DNA of 11,432 nucleotides from Patescibacteria group bacterium. GTDB lineage: Bacteria; Patescibacteriota; Patescibacteriia; UBA10025; JAHIVO01. The DNA lies in NCBI GenBank assembly GCA_018816445.1, contig JAHIVO010000028.1, positions 1-11,432 of the forward strand. The letters run 5' to 3'. The translations under genes and the position numbers were made by a program. A model generated the notes under the pieces. That model did not search any database, was not told the origin of the DNA, and saw only the letters and a list, made by a program, of their open reading frames with translations. Below are positions 237-9,537 of the stretch, one piece after another (within the stretch, counting starts at the first letter, position 1; each line of letters begins with the position of its first letter).

Positions 237-2576
237 TTACTTAATTTCTGGTAGAAATTTTATAGGCCATTGTTTTGGGTCATGGATGTACTTCAGGTCA
301 TGGATGCCGATTTTTCCTATATATAATTTTTTTAATTCATCTATCCCCTTGTCTTTAAGTAGTCTTTGGATCATCTGGTAGCCGATAAAATAAACAATAT
401 CCTTAGCAAAAGCGCCGGGTTCATTAGTATTTTCCAGACCCCTTTTAGTGCGTACACAAATACGCCAAGCTTTAGCTTTGTCTATTTTAAAGTTACTTTG
501 CAGGAAGTGGAATAGTTCTGTGAAAGACAAGTTATTGCCATGGTAAATAGCCGCGATGTTCAGGGCAGGTGAAAAATATTTTTCTCCTAAAGGTATACCC
601 AGACTGTTTTGGTTGTAAATTGCTAAACCCTCTTCAGTCGTCAGATAATTAGCTGTTCCCTGCTCAAATAAGCTGTATTTTTGCAAGCGGCCATTTTCCA
701 GGCGGAAAATATGTGTTTCAATTTCATGAGCAATCAGCGCTTTTAGACGGTTTTCAGAAAAGTTGGCTTTCTTATTAACGAAGATTGTATTTTTTTTATT
801 AATTTGCATGCCTGAAGTAGCAGTTTCCAGAATTTTTATTTTCCATCTGGTTAATTTTTTTTGGGAAAGGTACGCAGATAGGCGTTTGATTACCTCCTCA
901 GTGTTTAATTTCTTGCTAGTATCTTTTTCTAGCTTCTCATTTTTCATGAATGACAGAGCCTGCTCATATAATTCATTAGATACACTGCCAAAAAGTTTAA
1001 TTGAGTACTCCGCCATTTCCGGACGCCCAATATTGTCAATTAGTGATAGTTTATCGTCAATTTCTTTAATTTTTTCTAAGTACAACGGCATCAGCGGGTG
1101 GTCAATATTCTTTGGAATTTTTTTAATCTCGTTGCGCAGGTGGTTTATATTAAGATCATGTTTCTTGTAAATGAATTGCGGTGAGTGGACTGGTTTTTTT
1201 ATGAATTTTTTAAATTCATCATTCAGGTTTTGGGGCTTAATTCTAGCGATCAGGTGTATGCACTCATTTATTGCCAGAATTTTCTTATCAATATTTAGTA
1301 AAATTTTTTCTTCTTTTGATTCAATGGGCGCAGAACTAGTTGGTTCTGGCTTAATCTTAGAGGTATCAATTAAAAAGTCAGTCAGGTATTTGCCAGAGAG
1401 AATGGCTTTATATGGCTTGTCTTTAAAATTATCCGTAGTAAAGGGAATTTTAAGTTTTTTTTCTTTTAACACGATGGATAGCAAGCGTCCGGCTGGGGAT
1501 AATTTAATCCCCTGGTCAATGATATTGTTTTCGCTGTGGGGATCAATTTTTACGTGGATATTGGCACCATTGATTGCATTAATTATATTAATTGATTCAA
1601 AAAGGCCAATAATTGGCTTGGCAGTTTTTACATTTAATACTTTTTCTTCTTTTACTACTCGCGTAAATAAAGTTTTTCCGATTTTTACGCCTTCTTTTGT
1701 TGACATTACTTTAAGATCGGCAATCTTTTCCAATCTTTTACGCAGTAAGGTTTGGTTAGATATCTGAATGGCCAAACCTGCTCGGGCGTTGAGTTCTAGT
1801 ATTTTAATGCCATTTTTTGCTAAAGTTATGTCTACTGCCAGGTAGCCGATTTGTGATAAGTATTGGGTGCGGCTGGCCGTGGCTAAGATTTCATCCCACT
1901 GCGGGATGGCAATACTCCCGACTGGGTCACCAGTAGGCAGTCTTTTTACCAGCTTATTATGCCTTACGCCGAATGTTGTTTTGCCGGTACCAATGTCTAT
2001 GCCCAGACCAATGGCTCCTAGATGAAGATTGGCTTTACCATGAGATTCGGCAGTGGGCAGGCGTAGCATAGCAATGACCGGCACGTACTTAAAGACAATA
2101 ATCCTGATGTCAGGCAGTCCGCCTGCTTCCATAAATTTTTTGAAATAATCATGGGGTTCCAGCATCTCTTCAAAAATAACCGTGTCGCTAAGGCCGGATA
2201 TGGCGTATTTTCCATCCAGGATGCCGATACAATGCTCATATAAATCAGACCATGAAATATTTTTATTATTAACATCTGTGTATGTATCGCCGTGCCATCT
2301 TTTAATAGCCCATATTCCCTCCCCACCATAACCTTTATTCGGTTTAATCACAAAACTTGGAGGTAGGTTGCTTCTATTGAAATTCCTTAATTCAGGCAGT
2401 GAATTAATTGAAGCATAGAGCCTGGCTACCCCAACATCGCGCGCTTGCAAAAAATGTTTGGTGTGGATTTTACTGTCGGCCAATTCTTTCTTGCCTCGTG
2501 TATTATATTTTGTTATATACAGTAAATTTCTTGCGTTGATGCCGAGAATATCTGATGCTTTGCCAAAAAATGACAT
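237..2576 (-). CDS. Fusion protein: N-terminal alpha-L-glutamate-ligase-like ATP-grasp (RimK-related, sugar-transfer-associated ATP-grasp type) plus C-terminal DUF1704/MATCAP-like metallopeptidase domain (HExxxH ... EEGLA)
   Basis: 779-aa ORF. N-terminal motifs LGINARNLLYI, FVIKPNKGYGGEGIW and DIRIIVFKYVPVIAMLRLPTAESHGKANLHLGAIGLGIDIGTGKT match the rimK-related alpha-L-glutamate ligase-like family as I recall it. C-terminus has HEIETH (HExxxH) followed ~27 aa later by TEEGLAIY, matching the QEGLA motif of DUF1704. The middle is a K/I/N/E-rich linker. Stop is TAA. Confidence 0.7.
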   Translation of the reverse strand: MSFFGKASDILGINARNLLYITKYNTRGKKELADSKIHTKHFLQARDVGVARLYASINSLPELRNFNRSNLPPSFVIKPNKGYGGEGIWAIKRWHGDTYTDVNNKNISWSDLYEHCIGILDGKYAISGLSDTVIFEEMLEPHDYFKKFMEAGGLPDIRIIVFKYVPVIAMLRLPTAESHGKANLHLGAIGLGIDIGTGKTTFGVRHNKLVKRLPTGDPVGSIAIPQWDEILATASRTQYLSQIGYLAVDITLAKNGIKILELNARAGLAIQISNQTLLRKRLEKIADLKVMSTKEGVKIGKTLFTRVVKEEKVLNVKTAKPIIGLFESINIINAINGANIHVKIDPHSENNIIDQGIKLSPAGRLLSIVLKEKKLKIPFTTDNFKDKPYKAILSGKYLTDFLIDTSKIKPEPTSSAPIESKEEKILLNIDKKILAINECIHLIARIKPQNLNDEFKKFIKKPVHSPQFIYKKHDLNINHLRNEIKKIPKNIDHPLMPLYLEKIKEIDDKLSLIDNIGRPEMAEYSIKLFGSVSNELYEQALSFMKNEKLEKDTSKKLNTEEVIKRLSAYLSQKKLTRWKIKILETATSGMQINKKNTIFVNKKANFSENRLKALIAHEIETHIFRLENGRLQKYSLFEQGTANYLTTEEGLAIYNQNSLGIPLGEKYFSPALNIAAIYHGNNLSFTELFHFLQSNFKIDKAKAWRICVRTKRGLENTNEPGAFAKDIVYFIGYQMIQRLLKDKGIDELKKLYIGKIGIHDLKYIHDPKQWPIKFLPEIK

Positions 2577-2681
2577 AATAAGTAATTCAAAAGTAAAAAA
2601 TCAAAATGCAAAAATGCATGTTAAGTATTTCAAATTTTATTTGTCATTTTTATTTTTTATCTTTAAAATTTTCATTTTGTT

Positions 2682-4235
2682 CTATTCTTCAATATTTTTT
2701 TCTTTGAATAATGTTCTGAAACGGACATATTCCATAAATCTAAGCCCTGTGAATTTACCTAGGATTATTAATCCAAGTAATGGTGCCAGAACGAGTTCAG
2801 GCCATGACATTATCAGGTTTGTAAAAGCAGTCCAAACCACTAGATAATAAGCAGCTAGGGCCACTAGGATAGTTTTAAATACGCCGAACAGAGCTTCCCT
2901 TAAGCCTTCTTCAGACTGAGCTGACAGGAATTTTTCAGAAATTGTTGACATAACTAGCATAGGAAAAATTGCCAGGGAAATGGCTAGAGAAACCTGATAG
3001 TATGACAAGAACCAGATAAGTCCTAAAAATGACAAACCAATGCTAGCCAATATCAGGCCGGATTTAGGCATGTACAACAGCCTAAACCTGTTGAGAATGG
3101 ATCTTAAAATATAACTGACAGCTACAACTATTATTATTGTACCTAGGCCAAATAAAATTCCCAGGATGAGCAAGGAAAGAGCAATAACCGAAGGAGTATA
3201 AATTCCAAAAGCTGAAATACCGACTATCTGCCGGAAAAAGGCGATTACAAAAACAATAAATGGGTAAGCTAATATCAAATAAATAGTGTTAGTTGGTATG
3301 CCCTTGGTAATAAAATTTGTTATGGCATGGGAAAGAATAAAGAGCGGCGATTTTTCACTGCGTGAATCAATTACACGATATTCAATAGCTCTATTTGAGA
3401 GGTTGGTGGTTAGCAGATTATAATCATCTATTTCAAATATTGGATTAAGTGCTTCTTTACGGGTGAGCAGGATAAAAGCAGGCTGCATCACTTCAAACGA
3501 TTGAAAGGTCAGCTTTTCCGTAATACCGATATTTTGGTCAGTGATTTTTACTAATAGTTTTTTCTTTAAGTTAATTTTATTATCATCTTCCAGGTTTTGC
3601 CAGTAACGCGTGAATGACTGCAAGCCAAGGGAGGTTTGGGTGTAAAAGATTAAGCCGTCTGATTCCTTAATAAATTCTATTTCTTCACCAATGATTGAAA
3701 CCATTTTTTCTTCAGTTAAAAACCCAGTCTCTTCTCCAACGGCGGATATGATTTTTAAAAAGACGCCATTATGCGCTGCCTGGTCTACAATCAGCTCTAA
3801 TCCATCCGTTGTGTCCTTATCAGTAATTATTAATATTTTTTTGTTATAAACAAATATTGTTTTTTCAATATTGGCCTTGAATTCACCCTGCTGGATGGTT
3901 AAGGTGATTTCATGTATGCCGGTTGATTTATACTCATGCACCACTTCTTTCCCAAACTGAACAATATTATCATCTGTGAAATCCCAGCGGTATGATGGGT
4001 TAAAATCTGTTGGTAAAAGTTCTGATTCGGAAGCGTCAAATAAAGCTTTTTTATTAACCATAATAAAGTCTTCTGAAGTTATAACAGGAGATAGCTGATT
4101 TACCTCAATCCCTTCGTCGCTATCTGTTTCCAATATTGGGGCATCCTGAGCTAAGGCCATAGGACTGAAAAAAAATAGTGATATCAGCCCTATGAAGATT
4201 GTGGTCAGTAATTTTTTCATATAATTATTATACAC
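2682..4235 (-). CDS. Signal-peptide protein with extracytoplasmic PKD-like domain and C-terminal 7-TM bundle (resembles the 7TM partner proteins of RimK-like ATP-grasp systems; 7TM-transglutaminase-associated type)
   Basis: 517 aa. N-terminal signal peptide MKKLLTTIFIGLISLFFFSPMALAQ. PKD-like motif YRWDFTDDNIVQFGKEVVHEYKSTGIHEITLTI. About 7 hydrophobic helices in the last ~220 aa. Start is 2 nt after the upstream ATP-grasp stop (4238), suggesting translational coupling. Confidence 0.65.
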   Translation of the reverse strand: MYNNYMKKLLTTIFIGLISLFFFSPMALAQDAPILETDSDEGIEVNQLSPVITSEDFIMVNKKALFDASESELLPTDFNPSYRWDFTDDNIVQFGKEVVHEYKSTGIHEITLTIQQGEFKANIEKTIFVYNKKILIITDKDTTDGLELIVDQAAHNGVFLKIISAVGEETGFLTEEKMVSIIGEEIEFIKESDGLIFYTQTSLGLQSFTRYWQNLEDDNKINLKKKLLVKITDQNIGITEKLTFQSFEVMQPAFILLTRKEALNPIFEIDDYNLLTTNLSNRAIEYRVIDSRSEKSPLFILSHAITNFITKGIPTNTIYLILAYPFIVFVIAFFRQIVGISAFGIYTPSVIALSLLILGILFGLGTIIIVVAVSYILRSILNRFRLLYMPKSGLILASIGLSFLGLIWFLSYYQVSLAISLAIFPMLVMSTISEKFLSAQSEEGLREALFGVFKTILVALAAYYLVVWTAFTNLIMSWPELVLAPLLGLIILGKFTGLRFMEYVRFRTLFKEKNIEE

Positions 4236-4237
4236 GT

Positions 4238-5191
4238 TTATTTAATACATTGCATGAGCGTTTTAAGCAGTTCTTTATGCCAGATATGATAGTACATTTT
4301 CCATTGTGGATATGGAAAGCCTGCCCGTGGGTTTAATTCGAAGACATAAGGTCGGCCATTTTCAAAGCCAAAGTCCATGGCATACATGCGATTGCCCATT
4401 CTTTTGATTTTTTTATCTATTAGAAAAGCAATTTTTATTGCTTTTTTTGGCACAGCACTTTTTTTAATTTCTAGCATTTTTCCTCCCTGAGCAACATTGG
4501 CTAATAGTGAGCCTTGCTTGGGAATACGTATGTATGTTTGAACGATTCTGCCGTTCATAAGTAATATTCTCATGTCATGGCGGGTTTTACATATGCCCGG
4601 CACTCCGCTAGAGGTGTCTAAAAAATCCTGTAATATTCCATTAAATGATTTTAATTTATTTTTTATCTTTTTTTTATCAGCAATGATAATACCCTTGCCT
4701 TCGGAGCCGCGTAAGGGCTTAAAAACAACTTGTTTGGTTTTAATTTTTTTTATTTGCCGGTTAAAATCAGATTTATTCTTAATTCTATAAGTAGGCTTCA
4801 TGTATTTTTTCAGGAGTTTATAGGTGTGATATTTATTGTCCATTATGAACAGGAGATTCCATTTGTTTAATACGCTCCAGTCTTTTCCGCCATTACAATG
4901 TAAGGGAGCCTTATTAAATACGACTTTGGCATAAATTTTTTCTTTCAAGCGGAGAAATTTTCCTTTTTTAAATTCAAAACCATCCGAAAAAATGCCATTG
5001 CCCAAATGCTTTTTGGTACCGCGAACATAAAATACGTTAAATTTTGACTCAGCAAGTCTCAGGAACTCCATGATTGATTGGCGATAATTGGGGTTATCAA
5101 GCGGATAATCAGACAAGGTGCCAGACTTAGTGAGATAAACCAAATTTGGTTTGTTATTTTGATAACGCTGTTTATTCGTTACTGCTGCCAT
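4238..5191 (-). CDS. RimK-like ATP-grasp family ligase
   Basis: 317 aa. Motifs VVFKPLRGSEGKGIIIA, RHDMRILLMNGRIVQTYIRIPKQGSLLANVAQGGK and YAMDFGFENGRPYVFELNPRAGF are typical of the RimK/ATP-grasp core. First gene of a tightly packed minus-strand three-gene cluster. Confidence 0.7.
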   Translation of the reverse strand: MAAVTNKQRYQNNKPNLVYLTKSGTLSDYPLDNPNYRQSIMEFLRLAESKFNVFYVRGTKKHLGNGIFSDGFEFKKGKFLRLKEKIYAKVVFNKAPLHCNGGKDWSVLNKWNLLFIMDNKYHTYKLLKKYMKPTYRIKNKSDFNRQIKKIKTKQVVFKPLRGSEGKGIIIADKKKIKNKLKSFNGILQDFLDTSSGVPGICKTRHDMRILLMNGRIVQTYIRIPKQGSLLANVAQGGKMLEIKKSAVPKKAIKIAFLIDKKIKRMGNRMYAMDFGFENGRPYVFELNPRAGFPYPQWKMYYHIWHKELLKTLMQCIK

Positions 5192-5297
5192 AAGAAATAA
5201 TTAAATACCATAATCCAGACTCAATTTAAATTATTGTGTCCTTTTTATCTTTGTTTTTATTAGACTGGGCAAATTGGCGTTTTATTTTTTTTAAAAG

Positions 5298-5381
5298 TGC
5301 CGCGGGAGAGAATCGAACTCTCAAGGTGTTGCCACCACTGGATTTTAAGTCCAGCGCGTATACCAGTTCCGCCACCGCGGC
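5298..5381 (-). tRNA. tRNA-Leu(TAA), class II (long variable arm), CCA not encoded
   Basis: Minus-strand fold: acceptor GCCGCGG/CCGCGGC, 3-bp D-stem with long D-loop, anticodon stem CTGGA/TCCAG with loop CTTAAAA (anticodon UAA), variable-arm stem GGTG/CACC, T-arm GAGAG-TTCGATT-CTCTC, discriminator A. Confidence 0.85.
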
Positions 5382-5636
5382 TCATTTGTCAATAAGAGTA
5401 TTTTTTAACATTGCCTTTATGGATGCTTTACCTTTTGAGATTTTAAAGTATCGTTCTCTTTTTTCAGCATCATCTTTATTGTTAAATACTTCATAAAAAA
5501 TTAATTTTATAGGGAGTCTATTTTTCGTAAATGGACTTCTTCCTTTTTTATGTTCGTTTAATCTCCGAGTGAGATTATAAGTTAATCCACAGTATAATTG
5601 TTTGTTTGAAAGTAAAAGTAAATAAATGTAGTACAT
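5382..5636 (-). CDS. Small GIY-YIG nuclease family protein (COG2827/YhbQ-like, ~84 aa); ORF is open upstream to 5663
   Basis: MYYIYLLLSNKQLYCGLTYNLTRRLNEHKKG carries GIY (YIY), YIG (YCG), Arg and Glu (NEH) motifs. The TGA stop abuts tRNA-Leu position +1. About 28% GC. Confidence 0.75.
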   Translation of the reverse strand: MYYIYLLLLSNKQLYCGLTYNLTRRLNEHKKGRSPFTKNRLPIKLIFYEVFNNKDDAEKRERYFKISKGKASIKAMLKNTLIDK

Positions 5637-5654
5637 ATTTGTATGTATACCACC

Positions 5655-5705
5655 CTGCACCACTAAAGGGTGCAGGATAGCTGTGAACCCTTTAGTGGTT
5701 CACAG
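5655..5705 (-). repeat. Paired hairpins with mutually complementary loops (ctgcacc-actaaag-ggtgcag and ctgtgaacc-ctttagt-ggttcacag) in the GIY-YIG 5' leader
   Basis: Stems of 7 bp and 9 bp. The loops actaaag and ctttagt are reverse complements, so an alternative 11-bp long-range pairing (ccactaaaggg/ccctttagtgg) is possible. Confidence 0.6.
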
Positions 5706-5723
5706 CAGTTCCGCCACCGCGGC
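5706..5723 (-). repeat. 18-nt direct repeat identical to the first 18 nt of tRNA-Leu (5364-5381); partial tRNA 5' fragment
   Basis: cagttccgccaccgcggc occurs at 5364-5381 and 5706-5723. Both copies are immediately preceded on the minus strand by a stop codon, TAG of the SpoU gene and TGA of the GIY-YIG gene respectively. Confidence 0.8.
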
Positions 5724-6188
5724 CTACTTGTTTACTATTTCAAATATGGTTATGCCTGAGGCTATGGCTACATTTAATGACTCCTTTTTGCCATACATTG
5801 GTATTTCAATAATTTCATGACATTCTTTCAGTAAGTTACTAGGCAGGCCTTTTACCTCGCTGCCGAGAAGCAGGGCTAATGGATATTTGGGTCTGAATTT
5901 AGTGTATGATATGCTTTTTTTTGACTGTTCAAGAGCGACAATATTATATCCTGCTGTTTTTAATTTTTTCAATGCGCGTTTGGTGTGCCGCCATGATTCA
6001 AAGGGGATAGATTTTTCCGCACCCAATGCTACTTTATCAATTTTAGGATGGGGCGGTGCCGGTGTAATGCCGCCAAGAAATATTTTTGTTATTCCAGCGG
6101 CATCGGCTGTTCGGAAGATAGCACCAACGTTAAAACAACTTCTAATATTATATAAAATCAGCACAAATGGTTTGGTATGCTTTATCAT
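5724..6188 (-). CDS. SPOUT (SpoU/TrmH) family RNA 2'-O-methyltransferase, TrmL-like by size (154 aa)
   Basis: LILYNIRSCFNVGAIFRTADAAG (SpoU motif 1), LLLGSEVKGLP and ESLNVAIASGITIFE (motifs 2 and 3). Stop is TAG at 5724-5726. Confidence 0.75.
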   Translation of the reverse strand: MIKHTKPFVLILYNIRSCFNVGAIFRTADAAGITKIFLGGITPAPPHPKIDKVALGAEKSIPFESWRHTKRALKKLKTAGYNIVALEQSKKSISYTKFRPKYPLALLLGSEVKGLPSNLLKECHEIIEIPMYGKKESLNVAIASGITIFEIVNK

Positions 6189-6206
6189 GCAAAGTACGTT
6201 TTATTA

Positions 6207-6219
6207 TGGTCAATGACCA
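6207..6219. promoter_or_regulatory. Perfect 13-nt palindrome TGGTCAaTGACCA just upstream of the SpoU-family gene start; possible operator
   Basis: Seen directly; lies 19 nt upstream of the minus-strand ATG at 6188. Confidence 0.25.
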
Positions 6220-6225
6220 CGAGCA

Positions 6226-6358
6226 AATTCAGCAGAGGTGGATGAGTTGAGTGGAGCGAGAGAGGGGACTCGCCCGTCCTCCGCAGAAGCAGGTTTCTGC
6301 TTCGGAGGGTGGAAACCCCCGACCTTTTCCCCCGCCTGCCAAAGCGGAGTAGAATAAT
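6226..6358. repeat. GC-rich hairpin element, second copy of the family seen at 1-205
   Basis: cctccgcagaagcagg...ctgcttcggagg stem-loop. Terminal ccaaagcggagtagaataata resembles ccaagctgcggagtataatagcgg at 166-190. Confidence 0.35.
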
Positions 6359-6404
6359 ACTCTTATATATCTAGGTTCTAATTGTCGGGGTATTAAGTTT
6401 TAAA

Positions 6405-6480
6405 TGGAGCGGCAGACCGGACTCGAACCGGCGACCTTTTCCTTGGCAAGGAAACGTTCTACCAACTGAACTACTGCCGC
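6405..6480 (-). tRNA. tRNA-Gly(GCC), CCA encoded
   Basis: Acceptor GCGGCAG/CTGCCGC, D-arm GTTC-AGTTGGTA-GAAC, anticodon stem TTTCC/GGAAA with loop TTGCCAA, T-arm GCCGG-TTCGAGT-CCGGT, discriminator T plus CCA. Confidence 0.9.
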
Positions 6481-6504
6481 GTATTTGCTGCTGCGGCGGG
6501 CAGG

Positions 6505-6538
6505 TTGGCAAGGAAACGTTCTAGCCAACTGAACTACT
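6505..6538 (-). pseudogene. Partial tRNA-Gly copy (D-arm to anticodon loop, ~33/34 nt with one 1-nt insertion) lying 24 nt 5' of the intact tRNA-Gly
   Basis: ttggcaaggaaacgttctagccaactgaactact versus tRNA-Gly ttggcaaggaaacgttctaccaactgaactact (6444-6475). The flanks do not restore an acceptor stem or anticodon stem. Confidence 0.7.
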
Positions 6539-6624
6539 CTCGCGCGTCCAAATGGTGCTATCGGTTTCATTTCTCCGCATTCGCGGAGCAACTACACCTT
6601 TCGCACGCATTTCTCCTTTTCCTC

Positions 6625-6746: not shown

Positions 6747-6763
6747 ATTTATACTAGCTCAAG

Positions 6764-6837
<74 letters not shown>

Positions 6838-6870
6838 TAATATTGTTATATTGTTTAAAAATTGTTAAGG
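6838..6870 (-). promoter_or_regulatory. AT-rich promoter-like motif cttaacaattt(t/a)taaa..., repeated at 6649-6672; candidate tRNA promoter (-35-like TTAACA)
   Basis: attgttatWtttWaaattgttaag occurs twice, each 5' of a tRNA or pseudo-tRNA on the minus strand. Hexamer assignment is uncertain. Confidence 0.3.
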
Positions 6871-6960
6871 TTTTGTCTCCCTGCGGGAGATGTCCCGAGG
6901 GGACACAGACCCCTGCCTGGATCCTGCCCCGCTGAATAGCGGGGACTTGGCTACGTGGCC
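6869..6960 (-). pseudogene. Degenerate copy of the tRNA-Cys 5' half (positions ~1-43) interrupted by two GC-rich hairpin insertions, one in the D-loop and one in the anticodon loop
   Basis: cttggctacgtggcc (6946-6960) equals the tRNA-Cys 5' end (6823-6837). cagacccctgcct (6906-6918) and ggttttg (6869-6875) also match tRNA-Cys. The insertions are ~27 nt (ggatcctgccccgctgaatagcggggac) and 30 nt (tctccctgcgggagatgtcccgaggggaca). Confidence 0.65.
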
Positions 6961-7058
6961 AGGCCCTTAAAAAAACAAACATATTTTATTAACTATGTAA
7001 GAATATAATAACAGAAAAATCCATTTATTACAAGTGTTTTCTGGTGGTATTTTTTTCT

Positions 7059-7936: not shown

Positions 7937-8605
7937 ATGCGCTTACCAGCTAAAAAAAAATATTTGCAGATTGCCTTTAACCGGACTTGGAGTGAAGTAC
8001 GGGAGATGGTTAATTATTTGCCAGCTTCAGACAGAATACTGGTGGAAGCAGGCACTCCTTTTATAAAAAAATACGGCCAAGAGGGAATTAGCGCACTTGA
8101 TCAATGGTGGTCGGTTAGATTGGGACGGCCTGGTTACGTTGTGGCTGATTTAAAATGCATGGACCGGGGATCTACTGAAGTGGAAGAAGCCGCAGCTGCC
8201 GGAGCTTCAGCTGTTACCTGTTTGGGTTTGGCACCTATTGATACAATCAATGAGTTTATCAAAAAGTGCCAGAATTCACAGGTTGATTCTATGATAAATA
8301 TGCTGAATGTTGATTTTCCATTTGAGGTACTGCAAAAATTAAAAAGTATGCCGGATATTGTCGTGCTGCACCGCGGAGCTGACGAGGGAGTGATTAATAG
8401 AGAGAAGATGCTTAGGCTTGACCAGATTCGTCGGATTAAAGGGGCCTATAATATTTTTATTTCCGTAGCCGGTGGTGAAACATCCAGAGAAGTTATCAGT
8501 TCGGCTTTTAATGATGCTGACATTGTTGTTGTCTGGAGGACTTTTTATGAACAGCCAAAACAGACAACCCAGCTGGCAGAAGATTTTTTAAGGAATGTAA
8601 AATAA
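7937..8605 (+). CDS. OMP-decarboxylase-suprafamily enzyme of the 3-hexulose-6-phosphate synthase / 3-keto-L-gulonate-6-P decarboxylase (HPS/KGPDC) family, paralog 1
   Basis: 222 aa. KYLQIAFN (first beta-strand), VEAGTP, ADLKCMD (DxKxxD), VVLHRGADEG (conserved His), ISVAGGE and ADIVVVW follow the HPS/KGPDC motif pattern. Asn replaces the usual Asp of the LQVALD motif. Confidence 0.8.
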   Translation: MRLPAKKKYLQIAFNRTWSEVREMVNYLPASDRILVEAGTPFIKKYGQEGISALDQWWSVRLGRPGYVVADLKCMDRGSTEVEEAAAAGASAVTCLGLAPIDTINEFIKKCQNSQVDSMINMLNVDFPFEVLQKLKSMPDIVVLHRGADEGVINREKMLRLDQIRRIKGAYNIFISVAGGETSREVISSAFNDADIVVVWRTFYEQPKQTTQLAEDFLRNVK

Positions 8606-8607
8606 CC

Positions 8608-9537
8608 ATGAATCCTTCAGCCGATTCCTTTATTGAAGTTATCCGATCCTTAGTTTGGTTTGTGGTAATATTTTTAATAATATACAGTTTAAAAAAGAAT
8701 AAAAATAAAGCGACCTCGAAGGGCAAGCCCTCATCAAGCAGCCAAACTTTAATTGATCTTATTACACGTTTAAGCCAGGAGGTAGCTAAAAAGAAAGCTA
8801 TGGTGCTACCAGGCAGCCGGCCAAGTGTTGGGTCTCCCCGTTCATTGTTTGCCACCCCGGCATTATTAGCTCCACCGCCGCCTAAATTATCCCAAAAAAA
8901 CAAGTATTTGCAGGTAGCCCTTAATAGCACTTTACACGAAGCGCGGAGTATAATTTATCAGCTGCCGCAATCACACAGGATTATACTGGAGGCCGGCACC
9001 CCGCTTATGAAAATTTACGGTAATGAAGCCATTCGGGCGATGAAATCCGCCGCCTGGCCAGGCGCTTATATCGTAGCGGATATTAAAACTACTGATTTGG
9101 CAGTTCGCGAAGTTGCCGAGGTTGCCCAGGCCGGCGCTAATGCTGCAACATGCCTGGGTGTAGCCCCAGTAGAAACAATAAATGAATTTATTGCCGCTTG
9201 CCGAAAATATGGGCTTGATTCAATGGTTGATATGATGAACGTGGATAATGCGCTGATAGTGCTAAAGAAACTAAAAAAAGTTCCGGATGTAGTCATGCTG
9301 CATCGTGGTGTTGATGAAACCGAATTTTCAAAAGAAAGACAAATTCCTTTTTATCAGATTAAGCAGATTAAAGGGGCATATGATATTATGGTCTCTATTG
9401 CTGGCGGAGATCAGATTCGGGAAGTTCAGCGAGCAGTGTTTAATGACGCTGATATTGTGGTTGCGTGGAAAGATTTTTATCGCCTTAGTTCAGACACAGC
9501 TACTCTGGCTAATCAGTTTTTACATGAAGTAAAATAA
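8608..9537 (+). CDS. HPS/KGPDC-family paralog 2 with ~90-aa N-terminal extension (one predicted TM helix plus Ser/Pro-rich linker)
   Basis: 309 aa. The C-terminal 215 aa are ~45% identical to paralog 1 (KYLQVALN, LEAGTP, ADIKTTD, VMLHRGVDET, VSIAGGD, ADIVVAW). ATG lies 2 nt after the paralog-1 stop. N-terminus LVWFVVIFLIIYSL, then SSSSQ...PPPP. Confidence 0.75.
   Translation: MNPSADSFIEVIRSLVWFVVIFLIIYSLKKNKNKATSKGKPSSSSQTLIDLITRLSQEVAKKKAMVLPGSRPSVGSPRSLFATPALLAPPPPKLSQKNKYLQVALNSTLHEARSIIYQLPQSHRIILEAGTPLMKIYGNEAIRAMKSAAWPGAYIVADIKTTDLAVREVAEVAQAGANAATCLGVAPVETINEFIAACRKYGLDSMVDMMNVDNALIVLKKLKKVPDVVMLHRGVDETEFSKERQIPFYQIKQIKGAYDIMVSIAGGDQIREVQRAVFNDADIVVAWKDFYRLSSDTATLANQFLHEVK

Follow-up and report, generated by a model that had tools for sequence, protein, structure and literature searches.

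Why should the first 18 nucleotides of a tRNA-Leu gene occur twice, with a pair of hairpins and a small nuclease gene between the two copies? This question is raised by an 11,432-nt stretch of Patescibacteria DNA (the window), in which all features of the region concerned lie on the minus strand (Table 1). The repeat unit, GCCGCGGTGGCGGAACTG, forms the 5' end of an intact tRNA-Leu(UAA) gene and occurs a second time, without a mismatch, at 5723..5706 (repeat search; blastn-short E 1e-5). By chance, a sequence of 11.4 kb with uniform base composition should contain about 0.001 exact direct-repeat pairs of 18 nt. Since two independent assemblies (ENA and NCBI) both contain this sequence, it is not an assembly artefact. 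A first-pass annotation had pointed out the repeat and placed its copies 343 bp apart; the measured start-to-start spacing is 342. On balance, this 342-bp segment is probably a small and selfish DNA cassette with tRNA genes as its insertion targets.

Table 1. Features of the tRNA-Leu(UAA) region in the 11,432-nt window.
Feature	Coordinates	Strand	Basis or remark
Intact tRNA-Leu(UAA)	5297..5381	-	ARAGORN; Rfam RF00005 61 bits
Right direct repeat, first 18 nt of intact tRNA-Leu(UAA)	5364-5381	-	
GIY-YIG nuclease ORF, 84 aa, minimal UPF0213/Slx1-like	5382..5636	-	Pfam PF01541
Decayed pseudo-tRNA continuation GGTATACATACAAAT, resembles tRNA nt 18-30	5637..5651	-	Doubles as short leader before ATG
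Conserved double hairpin between G18 and G19 of relic	5652..5705	-	Inverted repeat
Hairpin H2, loop CTTTAGT	5678..5652	-	
Hairpin H1, loop ACTAAAG	5705..5681	-	
Left direct repeat, upstream relic of tRNA-Leu nt 1-18	5706..5723	-	18/18 identity to 5364-5381
SpoU/TrmH-family RNA 2'-O-methyltransferase gene, 154 aa	5724..6188	-	Pfam PF00588 E 3e-36

The upstream copy, or relic, spans the acceptor 5' strand, the D-stem 5' strand and the D-loop through G18. Stop codons abut both copies, as had been claimed: the relic begins right after the TAG of the SpoU gene (5726..5724), and position +1 of the intact tRNA right after the TGA of the 84-aa ORF (5384..5382). The paired hairpins and the GIY-YIG ORF that had been reported between the repeats were likewise recovered. 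The description of the upstream copy as an 18-mer holds for the exact match; however, it is not a bare 18-mer, as the tRNA sequence resumes past the hairpins in decayed form (GGTATACATACA, corresponding to nt 18-30). The upstream element is therefore a 5' pseudo-tRNA interrupted at G18/G19, a sequence that stands uninterrupted in the adjoining intact tRNA. A weaker resemblance had also been seen just before the repeats (acaaGtAG versus acaaAtGA). It amounts to 5 of 8 positions and is not significant alone, yet it becomes plausible through two relatives: L036, an empty site that reads AACAAATAG up to the junction and GCC after it, and L029, where both stop codons lie 8 nt before the respective 18-mer copies. 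At the gathering threshold, Rfam returned three tRNAs and nothing else across the window; relaxing the cutoff to E 10 for 5250-5800 gave chance-level matches, with no known ribozyme, intron or leader among them.

Comparison with related genomes, which the first-pass annotation had proposed as a check, revealed empty sites. In L035 and L036 an intact tRNA-Leu(UAA) begins right after the SpoU stop, and its first 47 nt are identical to those of the window tRNA. Their SpoU proteins are 76% (L035) and 72% (L036) identical to that of the window, and the order tRNA-Cys, tRNA-Gly, SpoU, tRNA-Leu is common to all three. At the same synteny and tRNA, the site is filled in the window, L034 and L029-31 and empty in L035, L036 and L027. 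The two states interleave among equally related genomes (SpoU 69-78% identical), so that presence and absence are polymorphic at one precise site, as for homing genes. SpoU orthologues stand immediately 5' of tRNA-Leu(UAA) in L024, L027, L029, L035 and L036. The SpoU gene, for which all RlmB/TrmH matches in NCBIfam were sub-threshold, is a resident left flank outside the cassette, and its stop abuts the tRNA-Leu position whether this is filled or empty. A role for SpoU as a component of the system was rejected, the adjacency being locus-specific: rplS, parA or other genes precede other cassettes.

The databases hold no relative above 90% identity that offers an exact filled/empty pair. The best ATP-grasp homologue is 56% identical, and the best SpoU homologue (86%) belongs to a strain variant, which is filled too. 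No filled/empty pair inside one species was found there, so neither the direction of insertion nor co-conversion tracts can be read. The strain variant L034 equals the window across the SpoU 3' end, relic and hairpin and diverges in mid-SpoU by up to 42% per 40-nt block; its contig stops within the hairpin, and the identical tail is close to the assembler k-mer length.

Further searches for cassettes beside other tRNA genes, also proposed earlier, yielded 13 non-redundant cassettes at tRNA-Leu and analogues at tRNA-Val and tRNA-Ser. The Leu cassettes come from metagenome-assembled genomes (MAGs), one single-cell genome and metagenomes. They occupy at least six gene types (two types of taa, and tag, cag, caa and gag) and repeat one order: local tRNA nt 1-18, the conserved double hairpin, decayed tRNA nt 19-30, the GIY-YIG ORF and the intact tRNA. 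Genomes can hold several paralogues, each at a different tRNA gene; in one MAG, two cassettes at different tRNA-Leu genes (L003 and L005) are 83% identical. The tRNA-Val case (L018) shares this architecture, but its hairpins are unrelated and its GIY-YIG ORF, which is frameshifted, matches at 36% identity. At tRNA-Ser (L007), where the hairpins again differ from those of the Leu cassettes, the insertion point lies in the T-loop. Insertion with duplication of the target, as had been suggested, is supported both by this recurrence and by the empty sites.

The junction itself is sharp. The relic matches the local tRNA at 18/18 in 10 of the 13 non-redundant cassettes. The 18-mers before the hairpin carry no mismatch to the local tRNA in 126 positions, versus 27 in 91 after it (P 5e-12), and the post-hairpin segments are closer to other cassettes than to the local tRNA; that of the window differs from its own tRNA at 5 of 13 positions and from L001 at 2. 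As judged from these alignments, the 18/19 junction of the D-loop is the true boundary, target-derived on its left and element-borne on its right. The other end is ragged. Duplications start 0 to 13 nt before +1 (6-13 nt upstream in several loci) and end at G18; the relic is 16-18 nt long for Leu, Val and Cys, and the tRNA-Ser duplication runs from -6 to +71 (about 71 nt). The duplication is longer than the 18 nt that had been put forward, and it is 5'-ragged. An origin of the relic from tRNA cDNA was rejected, as duplications reach 6-13 nt upstream of +1 in L003, L007 and L033. Decayed forms were also found. The ORF is pseudogenised by an in-frame stop (L004), a frameshift (L018b) or an N-terminal truncation (L006), and ORF-less units of relic plus hairpin occur in L019, in L003 (in tandem, with a 117-nt period) and at Ser(cga) in L007. 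Such decay states are typical of the life cycles of endonuclease genes.

The hairpins are a conserved part of the element. They lie at an identical position in every Leu cassette; in the window they are bordered on either side by a TG dinucleotide, with folding z-scores of -5.7 as RNA and -5.5 as DNA. Covariation in the stems is clear: over 18 copies, 97.4% of cells are paired, both sides have changed in 11 of 19 pairs, and none of 500 shuffles was as good. Non-Watson-Crick pairs comprise four G-U and five A-C, that is, without bias toward the sense strand; an RNA-only structure, for which G-U would be expected, was rejected on this ground. Also rejected were kissing loops, or a 13-bp long-range helix joining H1 and H2, which show no covariation. 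Loop complementarity is broken in L029, L016a, L037 and L033, which were found through the protein, the hairpin core being in part fixed by the pattern used for searching. The hairpin was also found alone at non-tRNA intergenic sites with flanking 2-3-nt repeats, and given these solo copies it may be an independent element. One 608-kb contig holds a single exact-pattern copy, and viral contigs gave zero matches to the hairpin pattern or to the protein family.

The protein reaches 55 bits against PF01541 (E 7.7e-15; cutoff 22.6) over residues 1-68. It carries no other Pfam domain, and a DNA-binding module of the I-TevI/Seg kind is absent. Y5, Y15, G17, H29 and E61, residues of the catalytic motif, are invariant in an alignment of nine cassette proteins. 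The family profile matches the structures 1zg2 (E 7e-14) and 1ywl (E 2.5e-13) in the PDB, and only weakly Slx1 chains (E 0.02-0.3) and phage T4 endonuclease II (E 0.02). By these profile matches, the 84-aa protein is assigned to the minimal Slx1-like UPF0213 (COG2827) family and not to the I-TevI/Seg homing enzymes. The earlier remark that small COG2827 proteins lack a DNA-binding domain is borne out, the 84 residues being the catalytic domain alone. To our knowledge, neither an enzymatic activity nor a target has been assigned to the UPF0213/Slx1-like family. Its members BH0048 (1zg2) and EF2693 (1ywl) are, like the cassette protein, single domains of about 85-100 aa without extensions. [quoted passage not shown]

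These features can be joined in one proposed history. A cassette in which a minimal GIY-YIG nuclease gene is preceded by a double-hairpin leader and a fossil remnant of an earlier target would have entered the D-loop of tRNA-Leu(UAA) between G18 and G19, at a place where the SpoU stop originally abutted the tRNA. On insertion, a stretch of the target that starts a few bases before +1 and ends with G18 would have been duplicated, which would regenerate an intact tRNA 3' of the nuclease gene and leave the old 5' part upstream with the hairpins inside it. The tRNA or SpoU promoter probably drives transcription of the cassette, and RNase P processing at the tRNA +1 would set the 3' end of its mRNA. 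Slx1-type enzymes cut hairpin or cruciform DNA. The putative nuclease may do the same here, or it may nick or cut tRNA-gene DNA at or near the D-loop. Repair would then copy the cassette from an occupied allele, as in nuclease-driven homing; alternatively, nick-primed insertion with fill-in of a long staggered break could produce a duplication of variable length anchored at G18/G19. The relic and hairpins could serve as a homology arm, as an operator or site-mimic, or as a leader RNA, and we propose that they are a working part of the element and not a dead scar.

Several observations count against a selfish cassette. The presumed target is uninterrupted in the adjoining intact tRNA, which poses a self-targeting problem. 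Unlike in classical target-site duplications, the length of the duplication is not fixed. Moreover, the protein is Slx1/UPF0213-like, with no known activity and no DNA-binding domain. Finally, purifying selection on the ORF is strong, with dN/dS of 0.02-0.05 between orthologous cassettes, and the ORF has diverged about as much as its neighbour: between the window and L029, identity is 77% for the ORF and 76% for SpoU. Long vertical residence, or a function useful to the host, fits these values as well as recurrent invasion does.

On this basis, the gene could be regarded as a resident. A housekeeping UPF0213 nuclease would have become fixed in tRNA operons after tandem duplication of a tRNA 5' end, the redundant copy then being hit by a hairpin MITE. 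The protein would have a host role in DNA repair or tRNA/RNA metabolism and be co-transcribed with the tRNA, and its absences would be losses by direct-repeat recombination. Besides selection and SpoU-like divergence, orthologous positions have been kept at the SpoU locus, at the rplS locus (L016, L018, L038) and at the locus of L002, L032 and L037, and the solo hairpins with their short flanking repeats would suit a separate MITE. [quoted passage not shown] We nonetheless consider a resident gene rather unlikely. The improbable two-step history would be needed independently at six or more tRNA-Leu types, tRNA-Val and tRNA-Ser, with the hairpin landing each time 5-13 nt before the end of relic homology. 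Post-hairpin fossils that track the element and not the locus, pseudogenes and ORF-less remnants, multiple paralogues at different tRNA genes of one genome, and outgroups devoid of the gene all speak against it as well.

The conservation of the relic raises another possibility. The relic is still 18/18 in L004, L033, L002 and L032, despite ORF dS of 0.29-0.43 (L004/L033, L002/L032), where neutral decay would be expected. In L037 it has been kept unchanged although the adjacent tRNA was replaced by a different one, which weakens gene conversion from the adjacent tRNA as a cause. Judging by these comparisons, the 18-mer is conserved beyond the expectation for a neutral scar. The first-pass annotation had named conservation of the 18-mer for other reasons as evidence against an insertion; the excess conservation is real, yet it coexists with clear insertion polymorphism. 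The relic and hairpin scaffold might thus be a functional RNA that partners the nuclease as a specificity or guide element, as a regulator or antitoxin that mimics tRNA, or as an operator for translation, so that tRNA likeness would be the point and not a by-product. The order of a variable 18 nt, a conserved scaffold and a nuclease ORF would suit such a module, as would the tandem relic-hairpin units of L003 and a protein that has no nucleic-acid-binding domain of its own. Against this, relic length differs strongly between tRNA-Ser and the other targets, the stems lack the excess of G-U pairs predicted for an RNA-only structure, no Rfam family matches, and we know of no GIY-YIG enzyme that is RNA-guided. 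An RNA-level module of this kind is accordingly improbable.

A bolder variant of the selfish cassette would let the leader supply specificity in cis: in the form of RNA or of extruded DNA, the target-identical 18 nt and the double-hairpin scaffold would guide the 84-aa Slx1-like nuclease to its place in the cognate tRNA gene, the D-loop. Such guide- or mimic-directed GIY-YIG homing would belong to a broader phenomenon: in Patescibacteria, one micro-element after another would overwrite tRNA genes, inserting at elbow nucleotides (G18/G19, 55-57) and either supplying or regenerating a replacement tRNA. This is a long shot. It recalls the OMEGA systems (IscB/TnpB with omega-RNA), which also combine about 18 nt matching the target, a structured scaffold and the small nuclease ORF of a mobile element. 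However, the OMEGA nuclease is RuvC/HNH and that of the cassette GIY-YIG, guide length is not uniform in the cassettes, and the likeness goes no further than this layout.

Least probable is an att-like scar, left by an integrative element for which the tRNA gene served as attB and which has since been mostly deleted. In its favour, tRNA genes are classical integration sites, the 3' ends of tRNA genes are duplicated around inserts of roughly 90-110 nt in L027, L036 and L029, L029 has an rve-family gene about 1.5 kb upstream, and integrative elements likewise leave an intact tRNA and a partial-tRNA direct repeat flanking the insert. They carry an integrase and duplicate the 3' end, however, whereas here it is the 5' end, the duplication varies in length, the same 0.3-kb cassette lies between the repeats everywhere, the GIY-YIG gene is the sole ORF between the repeats in the window as in the other loci, and no integrase was found in or beside any of the 13 cassettes.

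Other mobile elements share parts of the selfish-cassette design. A transposase is absent, and the unfixed duplication length departs from transposons and MITEs; a group I intron is not indicated either, with no Rfam intron match and an intact tRNA that exists without splicing. The hairpin, a quasi-symmetric 54-nt palindrome pair with solo intergenic copies and 2-3-nt repeats, resembles REP/REPIN and other hairpin MITEs, but differs in its low copy number, the lack of a RAYT-type transposase and its fixed position inside tRNA relics. In fungal mitochondria, mobile GIY-YIG ORFs carry a partial copy of the gene they invade, for example Allomyces atp6. There, too, an essential gene is invaded and part of it duplicated, leaving one functional copy and a displaced relic beside the ORF; those cases involve the 3' end of a protein gene and an in-frame fusion, whereas the cassette involves a tRNA 5' end and a hairpin-split relic.

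A precedent lies in T-even phages, where Seg genes, like the cassette, encode GIY-YIG proteins, sit between or beside tRNA genes and are patchy among relatives. T4 SegB cuts the tRNA gene region of phages without its gene and thereby drives its own inheritance (PMC2330249), and it can promote segmental amplification of tRNA loci (PMC13096335), with which the tandem L003 units may be compared. A GIY-YIG homing enzyme in a tRNA gene cluster thus supports the selfish-cassette reading (PMC2330249; PMC13096335). Unlike the 84-aa Slx1-like domain, Seg proteins have about 200 aa or more, a DNA-binding domain and I-TevI/UvrC ancestry; their genes sit between genes, whereas the cassette interrupts a tRNA gene, brings a hairpin leader and comes with a duplication that restores the tRNA. 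Within the same phylum, other selfish insertions in tRNA genes occupy the anticodon loop, are spliced and mostly lack endonuclease genes (PMC13011429). The cassette differs in its D-loop site, in the restoration of the tRNA by duplication and in that no ribozyme was detected.

The cassette looks like a tRNA-targeting selfish element of an ultra-small bacterium, and a full-text literature search did not turn up GIY-YIG cassettes that carry tRNA relics. If this is true, serving as the nuclease of such a cassette would be the first biological role for the large, function-less UPF0213/Slx1-like family, and about 340 bp would offer a natural system for studying how a nuclease without a DNA-binding domain finds its site. 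The precise G18/G19 and T-loop insertion points and the unexpectedly conserved relic provide experimental handles, and the cassette may bear on the origin of split or intron-bearing tRNA genes. More widely, tRNA genes in reduced Patescibacteria genomes appear dynamic. The tRNA-Cys and tRNA-Gly genes of the window likewise carry relics of overwritten copies; with such relics at all three of its tRNA genes, the window matters for tRNA annotation in Patescibacteria and for the question of how tRNA genes are replaced horizontally. In further support of a selfish cassette, a different endonuclease gene (HNH) stands at the equivalent place before tRNA-Leu(UAA) in L026.

The first 18 nt of tRNA-Leu(UAA) were described in the first-pass annotation as occurring twice, once after the TAG of the SpoU-family gene and once, at the start of the intact tRNA, after the TGA of a GIY-YIG ORF. 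This repeat (GCCGCGGTGGCGGAACTG) is exact, with the spacing between copies measured at 342 rather than the 343 bp given there, and about 0.001 such repeat pairs would be expected by chance in the window. The organism is a Patescibacteria (CPR) bacterium, and the locus has the same sequence in two independent assemblies (one ENA, one NCBI). The upstream copy is a repeat of the tRNA 5′ end, as claimed, but it is not a bare 18-mer: it continues past two hairpins as a decayed version of tRNA nt 18–30 (GGTATACATACAAAT). Because of this continuation, the upstream copy is a 5′ pseudo-tRNA, or relic, whose D-loop is broken between G18 and G19.

In keeping with the insertion proposed earlier, further copies of this cassette were found beside tRNA genes. 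A protein-guided scan (one genome per species), a hairpin-pattern metagenome scan and look-ups of close protein homologues together gave 13 non-redundant cassettes of one architecture: nt 1–18 of the local tRNA-Leu, the same double hairpin, 10–13 tRNA-like nt, the GIY-YIG ORF, a spacer of 0–45 nt and the intact tRNA-Leu. The target anticodons are taa (two acceptor types), tag, cag, caa and gag, and one MAG carries two cassettes, 83% identical, at different tRNA-Leu genes (L003 and L005; L numbers denote loci of relatives and metagenomes compared with the window). The same plan recurs at tRNA-Val and tRNA-Ser. In L018, tRNA-Val nt 1–17 are followed by two unrelated short hairpins, GGTTAGAGC, a frameshifted GIY-YIG ORF (only a 36% identity match) and the intact tRNA-Val. 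In L007, tRNA-Ser(gct) runs from nt −6 to +71 into a T-loop insert of about 90–95 nt; the T-arm is then completed, and a GIY-YIG ORF (56% identical) precedes the intact tRNA. tRNA-Ser(cga) of the same genome has this arrangement without the ORF, and over the two genes the inserts measure about 85–95 nt.

The boundaries of the element were examined in seven non-redundant simple cassettes by comparing each segment with the local tRNA. The 18 nt before the hairpins showed 0/126 mismatches and the 13 nt after them 27/91 (Fisher P 5e-12). Moreover, post-hairpin segments are closer to those of other cassettes than to their own tRNA, as in L003a, whose segment has 2 mismatches to L004 and 7 to its own tRNA. 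Since they resemble other cassettes more, the left junction lies between G18 and G19, with the target to the left and the hairpins, fossil tRNA piece and ORF travelling with the element. At its right end the element is ragged: upstream of +1, both copies share 6–13 nt in L003, L007 and L033 and an imperfect stretch in L029 and the window. With both stop codons 8 nt before +1 in L029 and 0 nt before it in the window, the last part of the GIY-YIG ORF apparently extends into a second, duplicated SpoU 3′ end. A fixed-length transposon duplication does not fit such an end. The raggedness, including the shared bases upstream of +1, also makes duplication at the DNA level far more likely than an origin from tRNA cDNA.

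Orthologous loci, reached through homologues of the flanking genes, have the order tRNA-Cys, tRNA-Gly, SpoU, tRNA-Leu(UAA) in common. An empty site, with tRNA-Leu directly after the SpoU stop codon, had been anticipated for relatives and was found in L035 (SpoU 76% identical; 247-kb contig) and L036 (SpoU 72% identical; Kerfeldbacteria). In both, tRNA-Leu nt 1–47 equal those of the window, and neither the nuclease gene nor the relic is present at the SpoU/tRNA-Leu locus. L027 is likewise empty. L029–31 (SpoU 76%) and the strain variant L034 (SpoU 86%) are filled like the window, and the two states are interspersed among genomes of about equal relatedness. Absence of the cassette is the likelier ancestral state, since the nuclease gene is missing in three more distant relatives (the empty L036 and L027, and L024, where a nested tRNA interrupts the resident one).

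Hairpins, ORF and relic are all constrained. Across 18 copies the hairpin stems are kept by compensation, with 97.4% of cells paired and 11/19 pairs changed on both sides; neither shuffling nor sliding the register gave pairing near that observed. Wobble pairs in the stems show no strand bias (4 G-U vs 5 A-C), which leaves room for a role of the structure in DNA or on both strands. Purifying selection on the ORF is strong (dN/dS 0.02–0.05 at dS 0.29–2). Decayed ORFs were also found, with a nonsense codon (L004), a frameshift (L018b) or an N-terminal truncation (L006), as were ORF-less remnants (L019, L003 and L007). L019 arose by deletion and is not an unoccupied site, because it still shares leader sequence with the L004-type cassette. 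The 18-nt relic is unchanged in cassette pairs with ORF dS of 0.29 and 0.43. It is also unchanged in L037, whose nuclease is 86–88% identical to that of L002/L032 and whose upstream flank is orthologous, and where another tRNA-Leu(tag) follows the ORF. Its persistence through ORF divergence and this tRNA swap shows that the relic is constrained in its own right; it is more than a fresh scar, and conversion from the neighbouring tRNA is not what maintains it.

Solo copies of the 54-nt double hairpin, with neither tRNA nor nuclease, also lie in intergenic DNA on other Patescibacteria contigs (L012/L023, L013, L014, L015, L020 and L011). These solo copies are bordered by 2–3-nt direct repeats (TG..TG, CA..CA, TTA..TTA) and the D-loop hairpins by TG..TG. 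The hairpin is quasi-symmetric, its reverse complement having the same form, and it is sparse, a 608-kb contig having a single exact-pattern copy. It may itself be a very small mobile element of which the cassette makes use, or else the nuclease's structural target. A profile of the cassette proteins matches bacterial UPF0213 BH0048 (1zg2, E 7e-14) and EF2693 (1ywl, E 2.5e-13) and, weakly, eukaryotic Slx1; no I-TevI or UvrC chain was matched at E up to 1, and NCBIfam has no model for the protein. By these matches it belongs to the minimal Slx1-like branch of the GIY-YIG superfamily. Eukaryotic Slx1 is a structure-specific endonuclease, so cleavage of hairpin, cruciform or cloverleaf-like DNA is a reasonable guess for the cassette enzyme. 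Members of the minimal branch have no auxiliary domain, and a fusion of Slx1-like GIY-YIG to TrmH, the tRNA Gm18 methyltransferase, is on record (PMC1564403).

The data are best read as a selfish cassette that targets tRNA genes and is composed of a hairpin leader and a minimal GIY-YIG nuclease. The main rival, a resident host gene with independent hairpin hits, explains the strong selection and the host-like divergence, but it accounts poorly for the recurrence of one architecture at unrelated tRNAs, for the fossils carried by the element and for the decay series. A selfish cassette would enter at the elbow nucleotides of the D-loop and survive because duplication of the target's 5′ part leaves an intact tRNA. 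Copying might proceed by homing, in which an occupied allele serves as template to repair an unoccupied tRNA gene that has been nicked or broken; alternatively, a long staggered break anchored at G18/G19 might be filled in. The intact tRNA adjoining the cassette creates a self-targeting problem, which nicking instead of double-strand cleavage would soften. Conservation of the relic and hairpins suggests that they have an additional role, whether as homology arm, operator or site-mimic, or RNA. A search of the literature available found no description of this cassette/tRNA-relic arrangement. The nearest precedents are mitochondrial GIY-YIG ORFs bearing a partial copy of the invaded gene, and T4 SegB in a phage tRNA cluster (PMC2330249, PMC13096335).

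Many relics occur at tRNA genes of these genomes. The tRNA-Cys relic of the window comprises nt 1–16, a 26-nt D-loop hairpin insert, nt 21–33, a 30-nt anticodon-loop double hairpin and nt 34–41; a 77-aa ORF called over it (6749-6982) is probably spurious, and no ORF is involved. tRNA-Cys is plain in L035 and L036, as is tRNA-Gly in L035 at the place of the window's nested copy. In that nest, the outer 5′ part (6545..6505) ends in the anticodon loop, where GC-rich inverted repeats (CCTGCCCGCC / GGCAGGCGGG) surround the intact inner tRNA-Gly; the order is the CCTGCCCGCC.. inverted repeat, the inner tRNA-Gly, the ..GGCAGGCGGGG inverted repeat and the outer 3′ part. The outer T-loop contains a 41-nt palindromic insert (6313..6273). 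In its T-arm the outer copy agrees with the resident tRNA-Gly of L035, and the inner tRNA resembles that of L036. Nesting with the same GC-rich inverted repeats (CTGCCCGCC / GGCGGGCAG type) was found in tRNA-Leu (L024, L018) and tRNA-Lys (L029); in L006, the inner tRNA-Leu is flanked only by a 4–5-bp acceptor-stem extension, not by those repeats. None of these four nested inserts has an ORF. In L024 the dead outer copy belongs to the resident type (GCCGCGG...), with a foreign copy inside it. The relic that precedes the GIY-YIG gene in L016 and L018 has its partner in a 3′ relic further downstream instead of in the adjacent tRNA, so later arrivals have been layered on top. All structured inserts lie in tRNA loops (D-loop 17–19, anticodon loop, T-loop 55–57).

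Features of the window and of compared loci
Locus	Feature	Position	Strand	Remarks
Window	SpoU-family gene	6188..5724	minus	ends TAG
Window	upstream repeat copy GCCGCGGTGGCGGAACTG	5723..5706	minus	first 18 nt of tRNA-Leu(UAA)
Window	two hairpins	5705..5652	minus	
Window	post-hairpin segment GGTATACATACAAAT	5651..5637	minus	decayed tRNA nt 18-30
Window	GIY-YIG ORF	5636..5382	minus	84 aa; ends TGA
Window	tRNA-Leu(UAA), intact	5381..5297	minus	first 18 nt GCCGCGGTGGCGGAACTG
Window	nested tRNA-Gly(GCC)	6252-6545	minus	intact inner tRNA-Gly 6405-6480
Window	tRNA-Cys relic	6868-6960	minus	upstream of intact tRNA-Cys 6764-6837, ends 30 nt before it
Window	conserved gene cluster	237-5191	minus	downstream of tRNA-Leu
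Window	two adjacent OMP-decarboxylase/HUMPS-family genes	7937-9537	plus	222 and 309 aa
L007	tRNA-Ser(gct) and (cga) cassettes	2826-3243 and 4333-4515		
L018	tRNA-Val cassette	about 320 nt before tRNA-Val(tac) 1158-1234	reverse	different double hairpin in D-loop
L018	nested tRNA	after first GIY-YIG ORF	reverse	
L024	nested tRNA	2865-3150		
L029	nested tRNA	2355-2650		
L006	nested tRNA	2448-2733		
L026	HNH endonuclease gene	1308-1875		158 aa; Pfam HNH_3 E 8e-6

Several further observations were made. Duplications of the tRNA 3′ end or 3′ part (L027 3745-3875; L036 1380-1490 and 2030-2150; L029 2630-2750; L001 1597-1790) flank inserts of ~70–110 nt rich in GC hairpins, the mirror image of 5′ relics, and the L001 relic has a double hairpin in its T-loop. 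L007 also has another GIY-YIG paralogue, ~200 nt beyond its tmRNA gene. In many Patescibacteria the stop codon of the small SpoU/TrmH-family gene (window, L024, L027, L029, L035, L036) lies directly against tRNA-Leu(UAA) or nearly so. The gene is named tRNA G18 2′-O-methylase in some sources, and the cassette sits exactly after G18; this name, the cassette site and the GIY-YIG/TrmH fusions (PMC1564403) may be a coincidence. L034, a 719-nt contig from the same sample, was compared with window 5637-6355. It equals the window at one end, from the outer tRNA-Gly tail into the SpoU 5′ end, and at the other, from the SpoU 3′ end through relic and hairpin, with mid-SpoU divergence of up to 42% per 40-nt block. 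Either a recombination mosaic or an assembly bubble could underlie this pattern; the identical 3′ tail is about as long as the assembler's k-mer.

The cluster downstream of tRNA-Leu encodes a RimK-like ATP-grasp protein, a PKD and 7TM-transglutaminase-associated protein and an ATP-grasp/carboxypeptidase fusion (a sugar-transfer-type ATP-grasp with a MATCAP-like carboxypeptidase), and is syntenic in L024, L026 and L027. The HNH gene of L026 ends 7 nt before tRNA-Leu(UAA), in the place equivalent to the window's GIY-YIG cassette and, like it, upstream of the same ATP-grasp operon. The two OMP-decarboxylase/HUMPS-family genes have a 61-nt stretch in common at 70% identity (repeat D1).
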